Source: Centroscyllium fabricii (lineage: Eukaryota). Taken from it: DNA of 64,000 nucleotides. Positions 19,471-64,000 of this stretch are shown here, piece by piece; the first letter of the stretch is position 1, and the number at the start of each line of letters is the position of its first letter. The notes beneath the pieces were generated by a model. That model was not told the DNA's origin and made no database searches. It saw only the letters and a list, made by a program, of their open reading frames with translations. The DNA lies in NCBI GenBank assembly GCA_051313645.2, contig JBNRSN020000008.1, positions 121,706,001-121,770,000 of the forward strand, in the 5' to 3' direction. A program made the translations under genes and the position numbers.

Positions 19471-22400
19471 TATCATTATCCACTGGGTGGTGCTGTCGCT
19501 CCACTATACCCAATTGGAAACCAGCAAGTGGCAACAGAAACATAGTAAAACGCTTAAAAGGAAAGTAGTAACTTTTCGTCGCGTTTTTTAATTTACAAAA
19601 CATGAAAAACAGTAATAGTAGAAGTCTGATTCTTCGGAAGAATTTCAAACTACAAGTTTAATATTACAATTGTAGACTCACCCAAAACGTTCAAAATCAA
19701 ACACGTGTGAACGTAAAAAGTTCCATATAACTTTGTGGAAATGTATTATTAAATGGTTACACTGAACAGGCTTTCGATATTTAAAAAATTGTAAGAACAA
19801 ATTGACGGATTTTTCATAACAATTGACAACTGTTGTAGACAGTTGTAATTCCAATTTTCACCCAAAAATCTCCATATTTGTGCTTGTATTGATGATGTTC
19901 ATTCACTGAAACTCTAAAATATGATGTTTCCACGATGGATGAAGTCATGCACTCCGGTCACAGTCGGCGTGGTACATGTCAAATAATGCAGAGTTGGATT
20001 CGAGAATAAGGATGTCATTTTTTTAATTTCTCAATTTTAATAAATGATGTTATTCAGAAACGAAAACTGAAATGTGTAAACTGGTGGAGCATTATCACAA
20101 CAAAACTGGTGCAGCATTATCAGAACAAACAGTGAGCATTCCGAGCTAATCTTAATAAAATGCATCATTCTCAACTTTAACTGGAGTAAACATTTCTTTA
20201 TGTTAACGTGCGTTTCAGTCTTTAAAACAAGAATCAAAAATATAGAGCCCGGTCTACCATTTGTATAAAATTCCGCTTGGCGTTCAATTTTACAATCTTC
20301 CCTTTAAAATATTTCTTCCAAAATATGTTGTGATAATATTCAACGATTTCTGAAACATTTTCAAGCGTTCGAATACAGTTACAGATTTAAAAGTAAAACA
20401 ACATTAATGCCACTGTGCACTTTGGTGTAACTGTTCGTAAACTCGCTGCGTTGACATGTCCCGGAATAAATCGACTACAAATATAGAATTTTTTTAGTGC
20501 GAAAAAAAATGAAGTTTAGAGTTAACATTTTAATTATAATCTACACGATGTGATTCGAGATGTCTTTTCAACAAAGAAAACCTTTTCTCAGGATTTCGGA
20601 TGGAACGCTTGCAGCCGGTTTAAACTATATATACATTGTTTTGTATTATGCACCTACCCGCCAACAGTCCACGATTACAGATACATACGAGATATGTGTG
20701 TTTGTCGTTGAACACTGGGGTTTCTTCAATAAACCCGATCAGTGTTCATTCGTGCTTTTCGGATTTCTGGCCTAGCTCCCTCCGATTAGAAGCGGCTCTG
20801 TAATCATTTCAGACAGTAAAACAAATAGAAAAGTAAAACAGAGCTAAGATGTACATTTAAATGAACAACGAGCTGTATATATACACTCTCGCCTTACGGG
20901 TCAGATGTTTAAAATAAGAAAATGACTTGAATGGCTTGTACAGAAAGGGCACGGGGCAATCCTCGTCATGCCATTTGTCCTTTCGTATAAACTTGCTTAA
21001 ATGGAGCAAACATTTATGTAAAATAGATATTTTGCCAAAAAGTAAATGACAAAATTAATATGCAGCATTACAAATTAATGGAAATGTTCATCATACTGTA
21101 GTTTGCCGGAGGTTTTAACCGAGGCCGTGATCAGTGTTCCTGCTCCAGAATGCAGCTAAAACTGGGAAAATGGCAGCTTTTATTTCCATCTCAATGTGCA
21201 ACTTCGTGAACATTATGTTATAATTACACAATGATAACGCGTTTGAAATTGCGAATTTTCAGCTGACTTTTGTTTTACGCAAATAAATGAGAAATTACTG
21301 AAAAAGAATGTGGTTGCAGCAAAGCCCAGCGCATATTGGAGGCAAAACTCATGTTGGTCCATTTAGAATGAACCGACGCTGCACACATTGAAGTCGAAGC
21401 AGAATTCTCCTGGTTAACAGTCAGTGAACATTGCTGACTCTATTTCCCTGGAGCTTTCTGTGGGATTGAGACAACCACCGGAGCGTGAGGAACAAAGTTC
21501 ACTGGTGAATACAAGTTTAACCAGATCAAGCAGTCTTTTCGATTAAACTTTAAACGCAGTCGCTTGAAGGAAAAAAACATGGGATTCAGTTTATTCATGA
21601 GCGATTCAGCTCTCAGGAACTAAAGCTAGCCAACTCGGGAACTGCACGCCTCTCAGCTCAAGCTTGCTGTTTCTCCCGATGCCGGAGTTCTTGTTGAAAT
21701 TTCAACCTGAAACTGCAAATTTTGAGTTTGCCTGCAGACCCGAGCTGCTTTTCTGGGCAATGACGTCTGCCAGGGGTGAAATGATGGAAATTGTATTCAC
21801 AGGCATGATTTTCATTAGGTAGCTATTAACCTCCAAGTTTCAGTCAAGCGAGCCTATTTTTTATCTGAGGCAAGGGTAACCGTTGCTTCCCGTTCTTTGT
21901 AGAAGGGATGTTTCATGCAGTATATTAAGGCTGTTTGATACTTTTTTTGTAAACAGGGATCTATTTCTGTTCATCTGTTTCCTACTTAACCCCAGTAACA
22001 GCATTAACGATTGCTGATTGACAACCGTTTATAGGTAAACAACAAAAGTATCCATGCGCCAAATATAGTTATGTATGCACATATAAATAAATATATAAAT
22101 ATATATAAAATATATATATATAAGCTGGATAGGCAGAGTGACAGTCGCACGCAGATTCTGCAAGATTTTCAGAAACAGCCCGCAACAAAATAATCCCTAC
22201 TCTTAATTTTAACTTTAGCCTTTTATCCCTCTGGCCTTTCCCCCCATTTTTGACCATGTCTTGACCTTGAGACCAGTCTCACCTTGTTGTGCTCTAAAAT
22301 CTAATTGCTGTGCTGTAACCGGGCCAGCTTCATCTCTCTTCAGCTGAGTGGCGCACGTATTTCATGTTTTCTGTGATGCGGCCCGCCTAATTGTAATGAG

Positions 22401-22763
22401 AGTGTGCTGAATATATTAATCCGCATGTTATCTTTTTTTCCCGATCTGTGTGCCCTCTACTTAAAAAATATATCATTTCCCAGTGCAGACGTGTTGCCCG
22501 CGAAAGCGGTAACTGTAAACGGCAGTCAAAGCTCTTCTCAGCTGGCTTCGGACTGAGCTGCGGTTTCAAAGTGAAGCAGCCCAAGCAGTGAGGCAGTTGT
22601 GTACCTAGAGTATTAGCGAGTATGTTCCACGGGGCATCACTGCACACTGGACCTGCATTGCCATCATGAGCACTGTGTAGACCGGGGAACCCAATAACAT
22701 CACTCCAGTATTGTTTAACATTTATTTTGCTGATATTCATTGGCCATTCTAGAGTCTGCACAG

Positions 22764-23190
22764 ATGAGTTCATATTTTGTAAATCCATTCTACTCCAAGT
22801 ACAAGCCAGGAGAAGCCCTCAGCCCCACTTACTACGACTGCCGGTTTCCCCAAGACGTGACCAGTAGACACGCTGTGGTCTATGGGCCCAGCAGCGGCGC
22901 CAGCTTCCAGCACCCAGCTCAAGTTCAAGAATTTTACCATCATGGGACATCAGCACTTCCTAATACTGGCTTTCAACATAATCCTTGTGGAATTACGTGT
23001 CATGGTGACCCCTCTAAATTTTACGGATACGATAACTTACAAAGACAGCAAATTTTTACGACACAGCAAGAGGCCGATCTGGTACAATATCCTGACTGTA
23101 AATCGTCTAGCAGTAATATTGGCGAGGAACCAGAGCACTTAAATCAGAACTCGTCTCCTACTCAAATGTTTCCCTGGATGAGACCTCAAG
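22764..23190 (+). CDS. hoxd8: Homeobox protein Hox-D8, exon 1
   Basis: [18 protein letters not shown]...[38 protein letters not shown]...QMFPWMRPQ. Donor AAG|GTTGG at 23191. Confidence 0.96.
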
Positions 23191-23413
23191 GTTGGATATA
23201 TTAAAATTAGCTTCCATCTCACGTTTTACTGTTCAGTTACACCGCCAAGGTGTTTAACGCTATCTGTAATAGTCGGCTTTTATAGGAACACGTTCTTTGT
23301 AAAGCAGTGCCGAGAAAAGCAAAGATTGTTGCCGTTGTTGCTAGTCTGTGGTTCTTTGATTGTGTGCATTGTATCCGCTGTTGATTGTTTCTTGTCTTTC
23401 TGCTGTTCTTTAG

Positions 23414-23709
23414 CAGCGCCCGGCAGACGCCGAGGGAGACAAACTTACAGCCGGTTCCAGACGCTGGAGCTCGAAAAGGAATTCCTGTTCAACCCGTATC
23501 TGACTCGAAAGCGAAGGATCGAGGTTTCACATGCTCTGGGACTGACTGAGAGACAGGTGAAGATTTGGTTTCAAAATAGGAGAATGAAATGGAAAAAAGA
23601 AAACAACAAAGACAAATTTCCAACCTCTCGGAACGAGGAGGAGGAGGAAGAGGTCAAGAAAGAACAGGAAGAGCCTGAGCAGGGGACAACAGAAACTGAG
23701 ACCAAGTAA
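23414..23709 (+). CDS. hoxd8: Homeobox protein Hox-D8, exon 2 (homeodomain)
   Basis: Acceptor TTTAG (alternative CAG, exon start 23417), then [70 protein letters not shown] and an acidic tail. Spliced product 240 aa. Confidence 0.97.
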
Positions 23710-24101
23710 CTGTACCCCCTTTGGCCTCAAAGCAAAAACCTCATTCAGTTTGTGCCAATTCCACTGTTAAACGTGTTGATCAGAACAAATCCTCCAGCAC
23801 ATTGATGGCTAGTTTTGTGTAAACAGTCCACCTGTTTTTGAAGTTCTTTAGAGCCTTAATTCGACATTATTTCTAATGAGGTCTGTGTGCATCATTTTAA
23901 CCTTTTCAATCACACTCCGACAGATAGAGTATCAACCGTCCTATAGAATTTTCCAATTCCCTTTAAAAGTGGAAAGCGGCAAATCGCAGAAGAAATAGCC
24001 ATTTTGAATAAAGATTATATTGCTTTTTAATAGGACGAAAATATGAAATGATATCGTGATTGATTTAGTTTGTTGATTTTATTTAGCATTTTGTGATTAT
24101 A

Positions 24102-24122
24102 CCCAACAACATGAACTGCCTA
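24102..24122 (+). promoter_or_regulatory. miR-196 target site in HoxD8 3'UTR
   Basis: CCCAACAACATGAACTGCCTA versus the reverse complement of miR-196a CCCAACAACATGAAACTACCTA: one G:U and one bulged nt. Confidence 0.9.
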
Positions 24123-24354
24123 ATAGAACGGATTATTTGGAATGTAATGCGAACACACTTAATTAATGATAGAAAAAAAGGTGCACTTGCGATGTGTCTT
24201 AATTACTGTGCGTGTAAACTAATTGGTGTATTGCGGCTGGAAATTCTCAACCATTAACTATTCTCCGATACGCATATTATAAACACAAGCAAAAAAAATA
24301 CAAGGTATTCCGCAGCAATAGTCACTTTTTATGATGGTCGAATGTGATTAAATT

Positions 24355-24360
24355 AATAAA
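24355..24360 (+). terminator. Candidate HoxD8 polyadenylation signal
   Basis: AATAAA followed by a GT/T-rich tract, downstream of the miR-196 site. Confidence 0.5.
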
Positions 24361-24732
24361 TGTTGATTCAATTTAACTGTGTACTTGTTTCATTTTACGA
24401 CCAGTATCACAAAGAAAATAAAAGTAATTCATTTGATATAAAATCACTGTGCTCTTATTGAAATAGCTGAGATCGCGGATCACTATTTTGCCAGCGATTT
24501 GTGGCTGTTTCGAGTATTTTCTGTAAGGTTAAATCAGATGTATTTTAATATTGTTTGTCTATCCCTGTGGCCAGAAGGTGTACGTCTGCCATACAGCACC
24601 GCAACTCTGTTCGTTCGATGCAAAAGCCCGAAGATGGCGTAATTCTTTATATGTAGTTATAAAAGTTAATGATATGGCTGATGATTAGAATATTAGTTTA
24701 TCTATGCCCCAAGTTAAATGTCTTTCGAGTGA

Positions 24733-24930
24733 CCATTGGCTAGTCAGATCACATGCCTGGTTCATGTGTGGCTAAAACGACGCTGTAAAAGCTAGTGGTT
24801 GGTGTTAAACTGCGGTCTACTGTACACGTATATCAACAAATCTCGTAAAACCGACAATAAAAGTTCTAGTACTACAAATCACTCGGCAAACTGTGGACTT
24901 CTGGGTTCCAATTTATTCTTTTCTGGTTTA
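24733..24930 (+). pseudogene. HoxD7 remnant: promoter, 5'UTR and decayed start of exon 1
   Basis: CCATTGGC + CACATG promoter pair, then TATATCAAcaAATCTCGTAAAACCGACAaTAAAA...CTACAAATCActCGGCAAAcT, matching the recalled HOXB7 5'UTR. GTG at 24893 stands where the ATG should be. Confidence 0.75.
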
Positions 24931-27429
24931 AAGGCTGAGGAGGGAAGCAGAATCTTCAGTGGTCGAAGTAACCGTCTGCCTTCCATTAAACTTTACTTAA
25001 GCAGCGATCAAGCCACATCTAAACTTCAACAGGATCAGTGGGCAGATAAACCCTAACCATCGGAACTGGCAATGTTCTATCTCCGCCTTTCCTTTGCGCA
25101 CGATGATAAGCATAAATAAATAAAAAATATTGATAAGAACAAACAGGAAACAATTAGAAAAAAAAGCAAACATGTACTTCAAATGTTGTGCAAACAATCA
25201 AAAACGCGCGATTATTTGAAGAACTAAAGATAACAGTATACATTTTACCAGCGGACTCCAGAATCCACTCTGATAACACAGCCATGATATTAAGATCTCT
25301 GATTTACGAAACAATTTCAGACTTGTAGTCGAATATAATAGTATATTACATAACTAGGCGTCATATTCTGACAATGTCCTCATTCCATCAGGTATAGTTT
25401 CCCATTTGAAGTGCCAATCGACTAACTCAGACGAACAACAGCGAAGTTTGAAAACTCCAGTTTTGTCAGACTTTAAAGTGTCTAATTTATGTATCCTAAT
25501 TCGATGGCATCATACTTTATTTTAATACAAATACATTCTGCGAAATGTATTGTAAATCACAAGGGCGCCCAACTATAACGTAGATTAATACTTTCAGAGA
25601 ATAAATCAACTATAAGTAAAGTAATATCAGGGTTTTATTTTTGAAATTGCATTCTCGTGCCGGGGAGTGGTCTTTTCACTAACTTTTAATCGTTTTTCAC
25701 AAGCCTCCCTTGCTTTTTAACCAGATGGGCTTTTTTTCCAATGTGATACGTAATCTGTGCTCCTTTTTGGAAAGAACACTTATTTCTAAATTTCATCAAA
25801 TCTGTTACACAAAGTTCTAAACCAAAGAATGAAATAGATTAAAATTTGTTTTTGCATCCACTGCCATTTACAAATTCGACTATCAATTATGGGTCTTTGC
25901 CGCAGTCGCGGTCACCAAGGTGCTGCACAATTATGGCCGAGCCTTATCGATGGTCTTATTAGATTATAGGAATGGCAAGCCCCTCCGTGCTTTCACCGAA
26001 GGAATGGTGGACACAATGAAGAGGCTTTTTGGTGGAATCAGTCCTTTGACGTGGGCATTAAGCGTCATACTTGCATAGATTTTAGCAGACAATGTAGATC
26101 ATAACTTGCCAGAAATGCTGCGACATGCATTAAAAAATGCTCCTTATGAATCCTGGTAAAAGATTTCTCTGGGTTTTTGAAGCCCGTTCGTTTTTTTTTC
26201 TCTAATCAAACCTCTGCCGAAATCCCTCCACCCTCACCCCAGAAAAACATCTTTCGGAACCAGAGTATGGATAACTTATAAGGTTTAACGTTTTATTCAT
26301 ATTGTATTTTATTTTTGGTCTAACGTTTCCAGAAGTTTATCGTTATCATAAAGGAAGTTTGAGAAATCGGCGCTTAGACATGTATATTTCAAGCAGGCGG
26401 TTCTGCATTTTCCCCGTAAGATCACTTCAAAGCATTGGACCAGAGACAGACAACTGTTATGCTTTCTCCAGAGTTAAATCCGCGGGAAATATGGGGTTAA
26501 GTAGAAAGTTCGAATATCAAATATCTACCAGCCATCATCGTTTTTTCCTAATGAATGAGGTTCCTGTGAATTTAACATTAGTGGCCGAGCCCGCTCGCTG
26601 CTGGTAAAGGGAATCACCAAAAAACCGATTCTAACCATTTACACTTTCATTCATGCTGAATATATTTACCCACCGTCGAAGCTATTTTATCCATTTAACC
26701 CAATTCTTATTGACTACTGAGATGTGTTGTTATTTTACTTTATAGGGTAATTTTCTCCCCATCACTGGAAACACGAGGAGTATAATGCAACGTTCCATTG
26801 TGATTAGAAATTGAGGTACAATGTGTAACCAGATAGCTAGATTTGCTGATCGTTAACTTCCAGTTTCTCACCTGTGTAGAATGCACCACGGAACATTTAT
26901 AATAAGCTGACACATTGCTTTTATTATTGATTGTTACTTGAAGGAAGGCAACCGCCGTTGTTTTGATATTTCTTCAGTAGCCAAACACGCTTCAGGTTCG
27001 TTTGTTTCGATTCTTAACTCGGCTATGTCGGATGGTCTCAGAACATCACGTCAAAACAAAACGAATAGGCTGCCTGATTCATAATTGGCAACATTAGATA
27101 TTGTGATCGTTGCACGTTTAATTATTTGTAGAACTAGTTTTTAAACGTACTTGACGTATTTAAAACATGAACTAAAAAAGTATAGATTTTGAAACACAGT
27201 GTAGGGGTTTGATTGGTGCACTGTGAAATGTCCACTGCAGTGGAAAGATTTCCCTTTATGTTTATGCTGTTGCTGCACTTCCGCCTGTATAGTTGGTTAA
27301 GGCGTTCGTTACAATACACATTACAGCAAATCGCTGCAGCAAAGAACTCGTTAAAGGAAACATGGCGCTTGCGAGCTGCACTTGCGAAATCCGCAAGGAA
27401 TTGCTGCGAATTCCTTTTTGTTTGAAGAA

Positions 27430-27565
27430 AATTTACAACTTTGTAATGGACCTTTTACGACGGAGACGACGCTCCTACTGGTTGGCTTTGGTCATGTGAC
27501 TCTAGTAACTGCGTTCATGGCCTTTTCATGATTTCCCTTGTGAATATTTCACTGCATTCCGCTGC
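27430..27565 (+). promoter_or_regulatory. Conserved Hox8/7-6 intergenic element / orphan promoter
   Basis: AATTTACAACTTTGTAATGGACCTTTTACGAC (Hox/Cdx sites), GGTTGGC and the GGTCATGTG E-box, with no adjacent coding gene. Position matches the four-cluster sequence described between groups 8/7 and 6. Confidence 0.6.
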
Positions 27566-30110
27566 TAACTCCTCTCAAACCGTCTTTTCTGTCAGTATCT
27601 CCCCTAGCCTGCTTTTGTCGTTGGTATTTGGCGCCAGCTGCTTGCAAAAAAGGACACTTTCCGCTGTATTCGCGGTGTTCAGTCCTTTTCTGTCCAACTA
27701 TGAGGAAGTCATTCGACTCATGCTGGGATTTAGCAACCTGATCACCCTCACAGACCTCTGCCGTCTGCTAACAGTCTTTCATTTACCCTTCAATTCGCTT
27801 TACCTTTTTTAAGTTATTTTATAAATCAATCGATTACAAATGGAATACAACATCCACCTGGTTGCTATTCTGGGGAAGCGCCCTGAGAGCGGTAAGTGCT
27901 GTCCTTTCCCCCGCTCTGTTGTTGCAGATAGCACTGTTGTACATAGGAGGGGACGGCGTTGGATTCGTTGGTTGGGGGTCTCGGCAGCTGTTTTGGAGGT
28001 CGAGGAGTGTTCGACATAAGTGAACAAACAACAAGATTGATTTTAAAACGGCACATTCTACCGAGTGAATTCAAATGGTGGCTCTGGTGCAGATTAATTA
28101 AATATTTGTTTTCCGCAATAAGACGGGGAGTTGCGATTCGTGTCTATTTTTGATATGAAAGCTTCGCCACAAGGCAGCTGACATTTGTGCCTGTGACTCG
28201 CAGTGGAGAGCAATCGGATTGCGCAATTTACTGGTGGGACGATTATAATAATAATAATTACAAGTAGCGCTACTGTTGCTGTTATTTTGCGGGAGTGATG
28301 CCCGGTGATTGCCGCTTTTACTCTGTTTTCGCAGATGTGTGGTTTTCCACGTTATTTGGCATATTACAGATGCGGACATTAGTTGAACTCTTTTGCGCAG
28401 TCCAAGGAAATGCTGTAGTGACGAATGATACCCGTTGTGCTAATGATCCTAATAATTCCATGCAGTAATCGTTAGCTTTAGAAACCCCACGAAATTATCA
28501 GACTTTTAGGGAAATGTTTGGCGAACATCTTAATGATATTTCACCACGTGACAGCACTTTGCACAAATGAGAGGCGCCCTTACAGTAATTATCCTGCAGT
28601 CGATATCAGACTTGTGGTTTCAATATGATGGCAATGAGTGGGGATTCAGTAGATGTTTGTAACACTGCGCTCTTTGTCATAGCTGTAAATAGAATCAGTT
28701 CGTCCATCTGATGATTTATTTCCTGCAACAAGTTGTAACCAATTTGGATTGGATAGTTTATAAAAACCATAAGGTCTGCATCCTGGGAAATGTCTTTAAT
28801 TTGGTACAAGCAGCCCCCCAACCCCACCTTAGTGCTTTCACAATGTAAAGCAGAGCAATCACTAGAAAAAACACCGCGCTCCTGTATTTCCCCTGTCACT
28901 TATTCTCAATATTAACTATTTAATTGCAACAGCTTGCTGCGGAAATATGCGCAGAACAATGACATGCGAGTTAGCAAGAGATGAATTTATCAATAAATAT
29001 GTCTATCATTGTTATATTTTTTTTCAAGGCAGTTGCTTGTATTTCCGGGGATTAAGTACTCGGAGAGGATTGTTCATGATTTGTCTCACTTAACATCAGA
29101 GTTGAATAAGGGAGTTTCTAATTGCATCCACTTGAAATGAATTGTCATGTTTGGCATTTGACTATAAACTGGTTCGTCCTTCGGTCTCCAGATTATTTAC
29201 TGGAAGCAGATAAAATGACAATGCATTAGTTTGATAATCCGTATGGCGTATAATTATAGTGATGTTAATTCGCTATTAGCATCTGGTATATATTTGCAAA
29301 TGAAGACTGATTTGAAAACCGTCGATCTGCATGTACCTGTATCTATCGCGCAGACCAACAGGTACCTTGTCGAAATGAAACTCGGGCTGCAAAAAGTAAG
29401 GTCACAAAGTGTTCCTGGAACCAAATAAATGTTTAATGATATCGTAACATGTGTAACCAAGTCATAATTATTCTTTATCATATCGTAAATATTTCGATAT
29501 CAGCTGTCTATTTTAGACAAGGTCTACAAACAGAAATGTATCGATACTCTATTTATATCAGATTGAAGAATCTGAAGTCCATAGTGCTATTTTCTCTATT
29601 GAGAAAGCAGTTGAATTTTCACCTCAGTTTTCACGCAGCAATTGTCATTAATTGGGTAACAGTGTGTTTTCATATAATCTTCAATGCATCGTCTGGGTTC
29701 ACTACAATAATTCTTATGCAGATATTATTAATTAAACTCTTTTCGTCTCAGTTAAAACAACAAACGAGATAAATATTTATTTTCGATATATTTTTAGATA
29801 AACTAAAGCTGGTTAGCGGGAGTTCTGCGATAGCTACACTGCGCTTTTTAGAATACAATAAAAAGCTGACTTGTGATTTCCTAGATGTTTTCTTCTTGAC
29901 AAGACATAATTTAATATAAACACATTCAAAATAAAACTGAATCGAAAAAACAAATTACAAATATAATAATCAGAAAACGCATATTTGTAAATCTCAATGC
30001 CAGTGACAATCTTTAAGGTCGAACTATCTCATTTATGTTCTTCAAGATCACGTAGTCCGTATTTTTGCTAAAAGTACTAAAATGCTTAACAGGGACACGA
30101 CTGTATGTTT

Positions 30111-33840: not shown

Positions 33841-34348
33841 ATGAGTTCCTACTTTTTAAACTCCTTCTCAGGTCGCTACCAAAATGGCCACGATTATCAG
33901 TTGCAGAGTTATGGAAATACTGCGTCTGTGGGCGAGCATTTCAGGGAGTCGACGATGCTCTCCGCCAGGTATGGCTATGATTACACCGGGATAGACCTCA
34001 GCATGACTCGCCCTAACTCAAATCTGTGTGGAGACAGTGAAAGGTCTACTAACTACCTGCAAACAGCAAGTAACACCTTTCATAGCTCATCTGGTGTGAG
34101 AACTAAGTCTCCTGATCCTGCCTTCTGCTCGGGATCTTTAATAAGCCCATCAGACAGTGCGATTAAGACGGGGGCTACTATCACAGAGCCCAGTCACTCA
34201 TACAGCGGTAGCCAGGACCCATCGCCGGTTACCGATGAGCATCAAACGGGGACGAACAGCCCCAAACCAGAAGGTGGACAACTAGACAAGGATCCAGCAC
34301 AGCAGATGCAGATATACCCTTGGATGAAAAAGCTCCACCTTAACCAAG
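33841..34348 (+). CDS. hoxd5: Homeobox protein Hox-D5, exon 1
   Basis: [21 protein letters not shown]...[12 protein letters not shown]...[11 protein letters not shown] (paralogue group 5). Donor AAG|GTACG at 34349. Confidence 0.95.
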
Positions 34349-34737
34349 GTACGCTCACAGCCGTCATTCTGCCTTTTGACATACATTTTAATCCTGATCG
34401 AATTAATTTTTAGATAAAGAAACAAAATAACTGAGTAAGCATGATCTAAGTATATAACGACTATTTGTAAAAAGTACAGCAGTTTGAATCCTATCGGAAT
34501 ATAGGGCTGTTGCTTTAAATTATTATAGCAATTATGCCAGGAGCTGTACCATGTTATGCATCTTAACTCTTTCCGTTGAAGTTTAAAATATGTTTAAAAT
34601 ATTTTAACATATGTATCTGAATAAGTAAACATTTTGTTCTAGATATAGACATTATGGCGTATTTGTCTGAAACTGTATGATTTCATACTTTCGTTTGTAT
34701 TGATGCGTGTAGTAATGCATCTTTAACTTTTTCTTAA

Positions 34738-34989
<252 letters not shown>

Positions 34990-35619: not shown

Positions 35620-36571
35620 GATTTCACCTGGTGTTTCAGCTGCAATGGGTGTATAAAGGCCCGAACAATTGGTCACTTGTGAAAGAACCAAATGCCATCT
35701 CACTTTCGCACTTGCCCTCTATTCGTTTGACACCAGAGTTCTCCAAATACTGGTCCCAATGTTTCAGAACTCATAAAAGTTCCTTAGACTGAACCCCCTT
35801 TGAAGGCTTTCTGAATTAAAAAATACTTTTATTATTTTTGGCAAGAACTGTTGGCCGAGCTGATACTTATTCCAATAACTTTTTTAAGAAGAACATGAGT
35901 CATATGTCAGAACCCTCAGCACCTATACTACAGACACTTCATTTTCAAAAGACATTATTTTGATAAACTGTTGTCTAATGGAAGAATAATGCGAGTTTGT
36001 GTTTTTATTAATGGCTATTATCATTATAAATATTCGGGAAAATATATAAATCCATTAGTTAGACTTGATTGGCAGAACTATGGAGCTTATGAACAACTTG
36101 GTATTAGTTTCCATTGCATGGAATAATTTAGCAGGAATAACCGCACGGAGAATGTTTTTGGACCCAGCATTTATGACGAAAGCAGCAGGAAATAAAACTG
36201 TTGAAGCGACAGAAATAGCGAAACAAAATCATAGGAAGCTGTAACTGTTAAAATGAATCCGTGCTTGTATTCTCAATCGAACCATTTCTATTTCACTGTC
36301 GCTCACAAGCTATCGGTCACGTATACATGTCGTGTATTTACACTTACCAAATCTAATAGATCCCCGTGGTTGCATAAGAAATGCCCAGACTGCGTTTTAA
36401 AGTAAAGATAACTTATTCTCCAAGGCACGCGTCCTCTGCGTACTCAGTTGTTTAGCTTTATATTACTGAGAGCACATTTCGATGAACATGGCTGTCTTTA
36501 GTGAATAAAAGTTTTAAAGTTTAAGGGTTATTTATATGGACGCCACAGAGCCAGGTCCTGACTGGCTGTAG

Positions 36572-36792
36572 AGGGGCACGTGATGCCATTAAACTTTGTT
36601 TTATGGTTAGGGGAGTTGACAAGCCAAAATATAATTCACATCATATATTAGGTTAAGAGCAGACAAGTGCAGATGGTTAGTGTTTTCGAGAGGGTCTGTG
36701 GAAAGTGACACCAAGAAGCAAGCTGTCCTGTTCCACCGCTATGGACTGGCAGTGTCCCAGTGACTTCTACCTTTGCGCTGGAAAAGCAGCAA
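36572..36792 (+). promoter_or_regulatory. Distal promoter and putative non-coding first exon between HoxD5 and miR-10b
   Basis: GGCACGTGATGCCATTAAACTTTGTTTTATGG...AGTTGACAAG...AAATATAA (E-box, Cdx, TATA-like), then donor CAA|GTAAGT at 36793. Confidence 0.6.
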
Positions 36793-40698: not shown

Positions 40699-40715
40699 AG
40701 GTGAAATGCAGGTCA
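40699..40715 (+). promoter_or_regulatory. Hoxd4 5' RARE (DR5)
   Basis: AGGTGA-aatgc-AGGTCA, the same as the recalled mouse/human Hoxd4 upstream RARE, about 3.1 kb before the ATG. Confidence 0.88.
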
Positions 40716-42346
40716 CAGCGTCTAACAAATATTAAAATGTGTAGCGCCAATCAGCTTCACAATGTGCGATAATTTGAACTGTAAAGGGATTTGGCTTTCG
40801 AATTATCGGATGATGTAACGATATCTGGTATTTTCTTTGCGAAAAGGCTTTTAAAAGCAGAATTCGCTGCTGGTGCTTTCGTTGGCGTCATTGGTTGTCG
40901 AAAACTGTTTAGCTCCTTTCTTTCCTAATGCACTGGGGTAAACGGAAAAAAAATCACAGGTAAATCAGATCAAACTTTTAGCGACGTTATGGATGGTTTA
41001 CAAAAGTAAAATAATCAAAACATCAACTTACTGAGATATTAAATATGAGATTAAACATTTGTAGAGGATTAGTTTGGCTGCTCTGAAATAAAACGTAGAT
41101 AACCCGAAACCTTTGTCTGGCGTACTCGACAGAAACAGCAGAGAAATAAACAAGTGAAGATACCGTTTATTGTCAAAAAGTCCAGCTTCAGTGTTGCATT
41201 GTTAATCAATGCATCTCACAACATTGAAGTGTAATCTTTGTACTGTCGAACAAACTTACTCATTTTCGTTGGCGTACGTTTATAATTGTTCTCAGCCTGC
41301 CTCTCGTGTGTCTGTTTTTTTTAACTAGAGAGATAAGTATATAATTACTGTAAGTTTAGCTGAACAGTTAATTCGGAAAGGTTCACACGCTTAGAAAAGG
41401 TTCAGCGTGTGGCGGTCGCTAAAGTGAAAATTATAATGCAACTTTCCGAGGTGTTTGTAAATGATTTCAGCCTGACCCCGTGCCCTTCAGCCTTTAACAT
41501 ACAACGCAGTGGCACTGCAGGGACAGTGAGGACAGCAAAGTAAGGGACCTGCAAAGCACTAGCGTTTAGAAACCACCTTAGACATGTTCCAGGCAAAGGG
41601 AATCCTGATTAGCTGGCAGATTAAATTGTATATTTCTGTCCCTGCATATGGCAATCCAATTGACTGGTGGTATAATGAGATTTTGAAGTATTCTGCCGAC
41701 AGTATTATTTGATCCAGCTCCTAGGAAATGGGAGAGATTAGAATAGAACAAACACTCGTTATTTTCCTAGGCTGCTATCATTTTATGAAAATAATAATGA
41801 GTGGAAAACGCTTTGGAATAAACCAATATTTGAGCTATCGTGTATACATTTTATTTGATTAGATTTAGGAATTGTTTAGGCCGGGTGATATTTGTTATAA
41901 CATCCTGCGGTTTGTTAGTGGTGAGTTCAAATTATTAGCATCTGGAGCAATTATTGATTCACGCTGGGGCACTTAGTAATGTTAGCTGGAGCGGATCGGT
42001 ACAAACTGTTTCCTATAAAATCTCTGTGAAATACGAAGGGTTCATAAATACAGTAACAAATAGTAACTTCTGCTTTGTAGACTGTATGCACAAACCAGCC
42101 CTGCACGCTGATCCATGTTGCTCCCACTGCCGAACAACGTTTGCTACCACCTACCAGCTATAAGGAAACGATTTCTATTATTTGTCAATGGCCAAACAAT
42201 TACATTACTTAACAAACGCTTTGCCTGGATTTTATTTTCTTATTTATTAATATAACACGTCATTAACTCTTTGGGGCTGGCTTGGAACTGCAGCTTTTTA
42301 AACTACTTTTCCATTTTGGAATTAGTCGCCGAATTGGTTTGTAACC

Positions 42347-42429
42347 CGTCGTCTATATATACCCTGTAGAACCGAATTTGTGTGATGATTCGGTCACAGA
42401 TTCGTTTCTAGGGGAGTATATGGTCGATG
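42347..42429 (+). ncRNA. mir10b: microRNA miR-10b precursor
   Basis: Mature TACCCTGTAGAACCGAATTTGTG at 42360-42382 pairs with the 3p arm ACAGATTCGTTTCTAGGGGAGT at 42396-42417. Canonical position upstream of Hox4. Confidence 0.98.
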
Positions 42430-43685
42430 CCAACACTACGAAAATCAGCAATGTGCTCTTCGTGGCTTTTACTGCTTAGACTGATTTAGTTCTAAGTAAT
42501 ACTCAATGATTTGCTGAGAAATGGCCTGTTTTTATTTTGAATCCTGTCTTCAATATTGAGCAGAAGACTTTTAAATCCCGCCGCTCAGAATTGAATGGCT
42601 TATTTCAGCTATCCTTCGCAATCTAAATATGGTGCTTAACGTGTTGATTTACTGATCAGTAGTCAGAATGTAGTCGTTTCGAAACTTCTGGATTTACTCT
42701 CCGGAAATATAAGATTACTGAAACTTAACTATTTCTTGCTGAATGCTGCCTGTTTCCATGGCGATGACGATGAATTATCTGCAAAGATTGGCTTACGGTT
42801 TTGTACCGCGTTTGACCAACTTACGTTGCTTCCGAATTAAATCGAACTAGATAACGTCTTTGCTCAAAACTTACAAACCGAATTGTACACGTTACAAATA
42901 AAAGAGTTAGAAATGCGTTATTGCGTTAGTTTAAATAGATAATAGGTGGTAAGATGTGAGGAGATGAAAACCAATTGTGAAGAGATTGGAGCACAAACGT
43001 TTGCAAGTGTGAGGCAAGGCCAACAGATATAAAACTTATATCCTACTCTTCCAAATTATTGAACTTTCAGAGCAAAGTATTTTTGACCTTACAATGTCCT
43101 TAAGCAACACGTGTAAAGTGCTCTGTGTGACCCTGAATGCCTTGTTATGACTTTATCGGGAGTAGACCATGTTTGCCTTTGAATAACTTTGTCCAAAAGA
43201 CCTTCCTGCATCTGTAATGGCTGTAATTATTTTCCTCAGCTCCGTTATTCCTTTTTGTGGCTAACGGGATGCTTCCTTTGTCACCCTGCGTACGTTGGAT
43301 TGCCAGCCGTCTCTCCAAGTACCCTCGCTATTGTCATCCTGCTCTCGGGCGAAAACAACAACAAAAACATACAAACAGGCCGAATGCCTTCTCTATCCTT
43401 GATTTATGTGAAAAGCGGCAAGGAATGGTGGAAAATTCTCTTTGGACAAAAGAGCAAATTACCTGGGCAATATTCGAGCGCTCAGTGAGTGATCTTTATT
43501 CTCTCCAAATGGAAACCGCTATTACACGCATTTTCCGGAAACTAATTCGAATATTTAGTGACCTCTGGAAAAAATTAAAGACGTTGCCGTTTTTATTTTA
43601 TTTTTTAAATCATGGTTTTCTGGACGAAGTTTTGTAAAAAATTGTCATTAGCTGTTTCCTTATCCGGGAATCGGGCCCGACCCTG

Positions 43686-47447: not shown

Positions 47448-47524
47448 GGTTCACCAAGAGGACAAATTTTCTATTCGATTAGCTGTATTTCAGCCTGGAG
47501 GACTGACCTCTAAACCCTTGACCT
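47448..47524. promoter_or_regulatory. Hoxd4 3' neural enhancer core with DR5 RARE
   Basis: GGTTCA-ccaag-AGGACA at 47448-47464 (recalled mammalian GGTTCAcccagAGGACA), plus TGACCT-c-TAAACC-ct-TGACCT at 47504-47524. Confidence 0.85.
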
Positions 47525-49043
47525 TTTGGACTAAATCCTACCCTTCGCCTTTTCTATGTGTTTTAACACAGACACCATCTAGTTAAAGCCAGTTGAAATA
47601 GGTTCTCACGTATGAACTACTCCAATTTCTGCATGTGGCAACTTCTGCATCTATTTGCAAGAGTTGCGGATTTTAGTAGAATGTGTGTCGCCACCAAACT
47701 CCCCTTTTCTCCGCTCCCCGCACTTTTACACTTTATCTCTGATGACAGAACATAGGAGTTGTTGATTTACTCGGCTTCAAACTTTGCTCTTTTTCAACTC
47801 AATGTGGTCCCGCTCTCCTTTCTTTGCTGCTCGAATAAAGAAAACGTTCAGAAACACTCCCAGGCATTCATCTTCCAGCAATTGCATTAAGATTCCCACT
47901 AAATGCTTTCTGCACAAATTGGCCATAAAATACAGTTTTGCCACATTTATTTTTATGCTTAAAATACTCGAAATCACGTTACAACGGTTGACGCTTTGTA
48001 TAGAAGAATAATACACGTTGTTTATCAATCCAGAATTGAAATCTATTCATGCCACCTAAATTCTATGGTAAAATACCCAACAAAACAATGAATATTCCAA
48101 AATAAAAGATTTCGAGTTTAGCAGTTGTAAATAATTCTATTCTCAAGCACCGTTGCATCCATATTATGGATAAAGTCCGCATAATTTCGTCATTATTCAT
48201 TTTTTAATTAAAGAAGACACATTTCGACACCGAGTGGACACAGCACCCTATTGTGTAGGTGTTTCGGTCTGGCCCGTGTTAATGCTAAGCTATAACTCAT
48301 AACCGCCCCACCCCCCCAAAAAAATCTGCATCGTCGTCTATGAAGGTTGAGTACAATGGAACCCCCTTTTTGTGTTATGACGACCCAGAAAAAGTGAAAC
48401 TAAACGAACTTTTAAAATATTTTCGTCAAGCAATCTAATCGCTGAAACTGCGACCCAATGTACGCAAACAACTAGAATAAGTAATAATGAATCAGCAGCA
48501 TGTGCTGTCTTTCCTCAAATACAATCTAAATTGCGAGAACATATATATGTTAAAAGAGGCTGCAAGCAGTATCTGACTTTGACTTTTGTGCAACACCTAT
48601 CTCCTTGAAAAGCAGCCTACTTTTAACCGCAGTTACCACCAAGGTCAATTGATAACGTCTCACATTCATTTAGCCATGTAATTTATCAATATTTAACCTA
48701 TCCAGCCACACGTATTAGTGTAGGCACTGGTTACAATTTATAATTCAAATGTTTTAAATTTAGAAGCTTAATTATTTTCAGGTTCTTTCACTGTATCATT
48801 TGTCATATAAATATCGAATACACAAACATGAGAACTATAGAACATAAAAGTCAACAACATCATGATTTCTGAACTGTTATATCATTCAAAATTCATAACG
48901 TCACATATGATCTCAATCACAATCAATCAACTTGCATATTTATATCTATGGCCGCATAGCACAGTTCCCACAACCACACATCACCTATATCTAGCTGTGT
49001 GCTGTTTGTATGCATAGAAGTATTTTTTCTATACCTGCATGTT

Positions 49044-63575: not shown

Positions 63576-64000
63576 GTTTCCACATGTACACTGACAACAC
63601 CCAGCTCTACCTCACCACCACTTCTCTCGACCCCTCCATTGCCTGTAAACTGTCAGACTGCTTGTCTGATATCCAGTACTGGATGGGCAGAAATTTCCTG
63701 CAACTAAATATTGGGAAGACTGAAGCCATTGTCTTCAGTCCCCACCACAAACTCCGTTCCCTAACTGCCAACTCCATCCCTCACCCTAACATCTGTCTGA
63801 GGCTGAACTACACTGTTCGCAACCTTGGTGTCATTTTTGGCCCTAAAATGAGCTTCCAACCACTGATCTGCAGCTATCTAAGACCACCTATTTCTACTCA
63901 GTAACATTGTCCATCTCTGCACCTGAAACCCACACCCATACCTTTGTTACCTCTAGACTTGACTATTCCAACCCACTCCTGGATGGCCTCCCATGTTCTA
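63576..64000 (+). mobile_element. Degenerate L2/CR1-group LINE reverse transcriptase fragment, 5'-truncated, runs off the window
   Basis: HMYTDNTQLYL (decayed YADDTQLY), CLSDIQYWMGRNFLQLNIGKTE, VRNLGVIF and, after a frameshift, FVTSRLDYSNPLLDGLP. Confidence 0.92.

Follow-up and report, generated by a model that had tools for sequence, protein, structure and literature searches.

Probable remains of a lost HoxD7 promoter and 5′ leader in an elasmobranch HoxD cluster

Between HoxD8 and HoxD5 of an elasmobranch lies a short non-coding element that resembles the DNA in front of Hox7 start codons, in a gap where a homeobox search found no homeobox. Is this element what is left of a HoxD7 gene, and if so, why would it have been kept? 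We know of no HoxD7 in any jawed vertebrate, and the name was carried by none of the best 120 of 138 matches to HoxB7 exon 1, which weakly supports this absence.

The window (the whole stretch of 64,000 nucleotides analyzed here) is the HoxD cluster of an elasmobranch. It contains Hox10, 9, 8, 5, 4, and 3, all in one direction; 5′ of it lie Hox11, 12, and 13 and, in the reverse direction, an Evx-type homeobox. The assignment follows from the presence of Hox12, Hox8, Hox5, and the opposite-strand Evx-type homeobox at the 5′ end and from the location of two further clusters, HoxA and HoxB, on other contigs. The group 7 genes of those clusters are HoxB7 (exon 1 94 to 95% identical to ray/shark HoxB7) and HoxA7 (94% identity to a shark HoxA7). 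Among the 35 homeobox matches examined in the assembly, 30 fall within the three clusters and 5 apart from them, with no fourth Hox cluster; the element is present in A, B, and D. A short frame at 63584–63904, just inside the HoxD3 intron region, looks by eye like a fragment of a LINE reverse transcriptase; repeats are unusual inside Hox clusters.

The element starts ~300 bases 3′ of the last HoxD8 AATAAA. Its parts and neighbors are given below, with negative positions counted from the start codon or, in HoxD, from the GTG that stands in its place.

22764–23709, + strand: coding region of HoxD8, the 5′ neighbor (exon 1, 22764–23190; exon 2, 23417–23709), from the homeobox search and reading frames
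24417–24422, + strand: last AATAAA of the HoxD8 3′ region ahead of the element, likely the main polyadenylation signal
24727–24901, + strand: the whole element, a probable HoxD7 promoter and 5′ leader relic, from local alignment to HoxA7 −171 to +8 and from its group 7 specificity
24735–24739, − strand: CCAAT box (ATTGG on the + strand) at −158; at −164 in HoxA7 and −154 in HoxB7
24749–24755, no strand assigned: E-box 1, TCACATG as in HoxA7, 9 bases 3′ of the CCAAT box in HoxA7, HoxB7, and the HoxD element
24762–24768, no strand assigned: E-box 2, TCATGTG (TCACGTG in HoxA7 and HoxB7), still fitting CANNTG, 6 bases 3′ of E-box 1 at all three loci
24802–24835, + strand: leader motifs GTGTTAA (−91) and TATATCA (−64); both paralogues have GTGTAAA at −92, and TATATCA is at −65 in HoxA7 and −64 in HoxB7
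24842–24856, + strand: 15-base core at −51, identical in HoxA7, HoxB7, and the HoxD element and containing CTCGTAAA
24856–24861, + strand: AATAAA, in the HoxD copy of the leader only, not in HoxA7 or HoxB7
24874–24882, + strand: ACAAATCAC motif at −19; at −20 in HoxA7 and −19 in HoxB7
24893–24895, + strand: GTG in the register of the HoxB7 ATG, opening 12 codons only, with the next ATG not before 25072
27358–27575, + strand: second non-coding block with paralogues, found between Hox7 and Hox6 in HoxA and HoxB, which fixes the gene order around the relic
33841–34989, + strand: coding region of HoxD5, the next gene 3′

As can be seen from this list, TATATCA, the core, ACAAATCAC, and the start codon stand at −64, −51, −19, and 0 in HoxB7, as they do in the HoxD element. 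The run from TATATCA to AATAAAA begins at 24829, and CCATTGGC occupies 24733–24740. Neither E-box of the HoxD element is the palindromic CACGTG. Within the core, CTCGTAAA is a putative posterior Hox/Cdx-type binding site. An earlier note on this DNA had quoted several of these strings, all of which were found in their places. Of the promoter pair that it pointed out, both the CCAAT-side string and CACATG (24750–24755) are present, but the second E-box and the fixed spacing had been overlooked, as had the AATAAA gained in the leader and the second paralogous block 2.5 kb 3′.

To estimate the likeness to Hox7, alignments were compared with those of shuffled sequences. When the 10-kb gap was searched, the 100 bases 5′ of the HoxA7 ATG aligned to 24795–24890 with a score of 80 (shuffle maximum, 36) and those of HoxB7 to 24802–24890 with a score of 66 (shuffle maximum, 35); in neither case did any of 100 shuffles reach the score. 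The upstream-region alignments gave 90 versus a shuffle maximum of 49 for HoxA7 and 73 versus 43 for HoxB7 (0 of 100 shuffles each). The earlier proposal of a Hox7-type leader is thus borne out by HoxA7 and HoxB7 of the same genome, with scores far above shuffles. Specificity was assessed with 16 Hox upstream regions, one of which, that of HoxB4, was offset by 6 bases. HoxA7 scored 88 and HoxB7 scored 68 against the element; the other 14 stayed at 20 to 30, the background level. The alignment named as a check in the earlier note is therefore significant against both group 7 genes, and no equal match to another group exists among these 16 regions.

Searches of the whole genome gave a consistent result. 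In the 7.2-Gb genome, a 14-base version of the core occurs three times: in the leaders of HoxB7 and HoxA7 and at position 24842 of the window. The same 14-mer read backwards has 26 matches. Since a bare 14-mer can turn up by chance in a sequence of this size, the weight rests on the location and extent of the matches. The pattern formed by a CCAAT box, 9 bases, an E-box, 6 bases, and an E-box is also matched three times, in HoxA7, HoxB7, and the HoxD element (control, 0); it was derived from these very loci, and its evidential part is the common spacing and the absence of further matches. The promoter half alone (−250 to −101) gave scores in the whole 10-kb gap that were reached by 92 of 100 and 35 of 100 shuffles. 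It is recognized because it is colinear with the leader, not by its own score.

The position of the element agrees with its sequence. A blastn comparison of the whole window with 50 kb of each other cluster revealed just two non-coding blocks between HoxD8 and HoxD5, each present in both clusters. One is the element, and the other, near 27400–27570, is the second block, which scores 115 and 131 against the HoxA and HoxB gaps, above the element itself. Its counterparts lie ~5.1 to 5.6 kb 5′ of the Hox6 start in HoxA and HoxB. The element is thus located 3′ of Hox8 and 5′ of the second block, on the + strand. Overall, we estimate a probability of roughly 0.93 that 24727–24901 derives from a lost HoxD7 gene and represents its promoter and 5′ leader. 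The ghost of HoxD7 suggested in the earlier note, with promoter and leader kept and the start codon lost, holds in that slot and orientation are right and the GTG stands in the register of the Hox7 ATG. The HOXB7 leader quoted there matches a HoxB7 5′ UTR primer that was used across sarcopterygians and has the sequence of the core (PMC3038165).

Nothing comparable was found for the coding part. Likeness to Hox7 ends after the GTG at 24893, and anchored alignments of Hox7 coding DNA to the sequence 3′ of it were not significant in 10 of 10 tests (p = 0.09 to 0.96). AATTTATTCTTTTCT, which the earlier note had taken for an echo of Hox7 codons, lies 17 bases past the GTG (21 in HoxB7) and reads N-L-F-F-S out of frame with it; with the anchored alignments not significant, this claim could not be upheld. 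When Hox7 exons were compared with the D8–D5 gap by tblastn, the best matches (E = 0.02 to 0.04) lay well away from the element or in the wrong orientation. Searches with the protein, the gene body, and the 3′ UTR, as well as local DNA tests, detected no remnant of Hox7 exons, intron, or 3′ UTR. No Hox7 reading frame, open or broken, and no hexapeptide or homeobox remnant was detected, as a Hox7 gene or a classical pseudogene would show. miR-196–type seed sites, of which there are four after the HoxA7 stop codon and one after that of HoxB7, are found neither in the HoxD8 3′ region nor after the relic.

The start-codon position and the second block are 2515 bases apart in HoxD, versus 4187 in HoxA and 3953 in HoxB. 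This shortfall of 1.4 to 1.7 kb is near the size of the Hox7 gene body (1.6 to 2.1 kb), so the lack of a coding remnant need not mean erosion; the coding part of HoxD7 may have been deleted in one piece. Judging from the absence of a known HoxD7 in jawed vertebrates, the gene was probably lost before sharks and bony fishes diverged.

Why would such a remnant persist? The reading that we place first, tentatively and at somewhat less than even odds, is that the promoter and leader, left in their original slot when the coding region was lost, work as an orphan promoter. CCAAT- and E-box factors would bind it, and the E-boxes would drive transcription, by analogy with mouse Hoxa7, from a start near 24780–24800. 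The promoter would start a non-coding RNA and would help activate neighboring HoxD genes; the use could lie either in chromatin kept open by transcription or in the activation of the neighbors. This reading is ranked first because the whole layout has been kept, as a working promoter would need. The start is carried over from mouse Hoxa7, whose leader is ~112 bases long and whose promoter activity was abolished by mutation of both E-boxes (bioRxiv 10.1101/2022.02.10.479744). It would leave the best-kept motifs just 3′ and the CCAAT box and E-boxes 5′ of it. Long multigene, antisense, and non-coding transcripts are widespread in mammalian Hox clusters (PMC1831499).

The RNA would probably be short, given AATAAA hexamers at 24856 and 25115 and, in a crude scan 3′ of the expected start, no donor-like splice site before 25389. 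The AATAAA ~60 bases past the expected start counts against an orphan promoter: with so early a signal and no donor-like site, a long spliced RNA would have no obvious exit. The non-palindromic E-boxes and the failure of the promoter half to beat shuffles by itself also weigh against this reading.

A shared enhancer is a somewhat unlikely alternative. The Hox7 promoter region would also have served HoxD8, HoxD5, or D4 and would have been kept for that, bound by factors that recognize E-boxes, CCAAT boxes, and Hox/Cdx-type sites, with any RNA incidental. Such a role would not need a transcript, and it fits with the best-kept part being the 15-base core with CTCGTAAA, the presumed posterior Hox/Cdx site. 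It fits as well with the leader RNA, for which no stable fold was found (z = 0.25), and with the lack of any Rfam match above the gathering score in 23700–27300. What speaks against it is that the orientation, order, and spacing of the entire layout from promoter to start codon have been kept, whereas enhancers usually need less than that. The sharing of elements among Hox neighbors is the standard model of cluster maintenance (PMC1831499).

In the leader, the HoxD copy keeps 57 of the 74 columns common to HoxA7 and HoxB7, with no gap. By the same measure, living HoxD genes keep 68 of 74 (D4), 47 of 62 (D5), 30 of 43 (D10), and 26 of 53 (D9) columns, and fourfold-degenerate sites of D4, D5, D9, and D10 keep 21 of 50 (Fisher p = 0.0001 versus the element). 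Modeled neutral retention is 0.52 (bootstrap, 0.37 to 0.70). When neutral change was simulated at 0.76 changes per site, the estimated branch length, the observed count was reached in 0.05% of 2000 runs (p = 0.0005); on shorter branches, p was 0.006 at 0.55 and 0.18 at 0.38 changes per site. At columns where HoxA7 and HoxB7 differ, the HoxD copy equals one of them in 15 of 21 cases, close to the 51 of 74 obtained by arithmetic for fourfold sites, and the excess of conservation is therefore restricted to the constrained columns. All these values come from a comparison of paralogues in one genome, with HoxD7 alive for some share of the branch.

The numbers leave some room for a neutral relic, the promoter decaying slowly in a slow-evolving lineage after a single deletion had removed the coding body. 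The size of the shortfall, close to that of a Hox7 gene body, would suit this, and a retention of 57 of 74 is not significantly above the upper bootstrap bound of 0.70 (p = 0.11). We nevertheless consider it unlikely. The central estimate of 0.52 is rejected (p = 8e-6), and so is 0.60 (p = 0.002); there is not one gap across the 74 shared columns; and fourfold sites in Hox genes are partly constrained themselves, which makes the neutral yardstick conservative. In addition, the Hox6, Hox8, Hox11, and Hox12 upstream regions have left no convincing relic where these genes are missing. Selection on the element after gene loss is thus likely, as judged from paralogues in a single genome, and the retained cis-regulatory shell proposed in the earlier note does look constrained.

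A further possibility, an improbable one, takes the AATAAA gained in the old leader as a distal 3′ end of HoxD8, where read-through transcription from that gene would terminate or its RNA would be alternatively polyadenylated. Polyadenylation sites usually consist of AATAAA followed by CA and then a G/T- or T-rich tract, and CA dinucleotides do occur 20 to 25 bases past the AATAAA at 24856, followed by a G/T- and T-rich tract; the hexamer is also absent from HoxA7 and HoxB7. Yet such a role leaves the retention of the CCAAT box, both E-boxes, and the core 5′ of it unexplained, four AATAAA/ATTAAA signals are nearer to HoxD8, and such hexamers are common (10 between 23700 and 27300). Least probable of all, and by the sequence comparisons already largely refuted, is that the element is no relic of HoxD7 but matches by chance, represents promoter motifs general to Hox genes, or was copied later from HoxA7 or HoxB7: although ACAAATCA and E-boxes also occur 5′ of other Hox genes (bioRxiv 10.1101/2022.02.10.479744), the upstream regions from other groups, 14 of 14, do not rise above background, the element sits in the Hox7 slot in the same orientation, it extends 5′ of the expected transcription start, unlike a retrocopy, and it is more distant from HoxA7 and HoxB7 (88 and 68) than these are from each other (135).

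The search for relics was extended to other missing genes. No HoxD6 promoter relic was found, the scores of 31 and 34 being at the level of unrelated leaders. For HoxA8, A12, B11, and B12, 3 of 12 tests gave scores above those of all 40 shuffles. The two highest scores were due to simple repeats or gappy A/T-rich matches, the third was one point over the shuffle maximum, and all three candidates were rejected. Since D6, A8, A12, B11, and B12 have no convincing relic, retention of the kind seen for HoxD7 is not the rule. A metagenome scan for copies in vertebrate hosts returned at least 118 loci, with a best score of 53 among the matches listed and no Hox locus by alignment score or context; these matches are put down to chance.

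Several other non-coding similarities were observed in these clusters. A 34-base match (85%) connects G000:C1377:121677211-121677244, upstream of a Hox14-like frame in HoxD, with G000:C933:239737014-239737047, ~10 kb 5′ of HoxA13; it may be a trace of a HoxA14 region. A non-coding block 3′ of Hox9 is common to HoxA (G000:C933:239788110-239788187) and HoxB (G000:C778:78307484-78307561), with a clear HoxD counterpart absent; HoxA has no Hox8. HoxD8 and HoxB8 match upstream only at 300 to 440 bases 5′ of the start codon (window 22330–22460) and not in the last 250, which suggests either a long leader or a promoter farther away. Blocks common to HoxA and/or HoxB between Hox5, Hox4, and Hox3 (36557–36655, 40699–40740, 42348–42447, and 47449–47526) are presumably known enhancers and miR-10.

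The HoxD7 relic is well defined and probably functional, as far as its conservation can tell, and of a general kind already known. It provides direct sequence evidence for a former group 7 gene in HoxD, which is otherwise inferred only, and a small, exact element for the idea that the duties of promoters to neighboring genes outlast their own genes and keep Hox clusters intact. Should species with a HoxC cluster carry a twin between HoxC8 and HoxC6, this would add a new character for reconstructing in what order the clusters duplicated and Hox7 was lost. The HoxD7 relic also suggests that, among the anonymous conserved elements and the promoters of long non-coding RNAs found in Hox clusters, some are promoters whose genes have been lost. 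The boldest version, which we regard as doubtful, is that a complete HoxD7 core promoter, whose gene was gone before sharks and bony fishes diverged, still fires and is needed by the cluster; that it has a HoxC twin and a human orthologue, the promoter having been spared when C and D lost Hox7; and that it has gone unrecognized in print.

No description of a HoxD7 relic was found in the literature searched, the main shark Hox footprinting papers lying outside that search. The accessible parts of PMC2080641, PMC2746220, PMC1845163, PMC5676926, and PMC8892498 and of the supplements to PMC4470032 and PMC8892498 contain nothing on the element. In our judgment, the block has quite possibly, on balance probably, been published as an anonymous conserved element; that it has already been named a HoxD7 remnant is rather unlikely.

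Compared with known systems, the element is most like the promoter and 5′ UTR that HoxA7 and HoxB7 have in jawed vertebrates, with which it shares a CCAAT box, two E-boxes, and four leader motifs, their order and spacing, and the place in the cluster. It differs from them in having GTG for ATG, no gene after it, no miR-196 seed sites, CATGTG as E-box 2, and a gained AATAAA. It is also like the paralogous Hox non-coding sequences, blocks common to clusters since the genome duplications. Such conserved sequences of vertebrate Hox clusters were reportedly described by Matsunami et al. in 2010, and Kim et al. in 2000 are said to have described an “H8/7-6 four-cluster sequence.” The latter is presumably the second block at 27358–27575, which fits it better than the HoxD7 relic does. 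Three paralogous conserved non-coding sequences are common to all four Hox clusters (PMC3595034). Unlike anonymous intergenic elements, the HoxD7 relic corresponds elsewhere to a gene-proximal promoter and leader and can be assigned to one named lost gene.

Remnants of other kinds are known as well, among them exonic remnants that act as enhancers after genome duplication. Further examples are Hox14 pseudogenes and the reduction of zebrafish HoxDb to miR-10d (PMC3707753) and a HoxD12 pseudogene (PMC4470032). In all these cases, as in ours, a non-coding part outlives the protein-coding gene; the HoxD7 relic differs in being a core promoter with its leader and zero coding trace. Promoters of intergenic Hox transcripts include those of the HOXC6-5-4 unit and of HOXD4-3 with miR-10b. 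Transcription from sites between Hox genes is reported in PMC1831499, and HOXD-AS2 is placed between D4 and D10 in PMC8293171.
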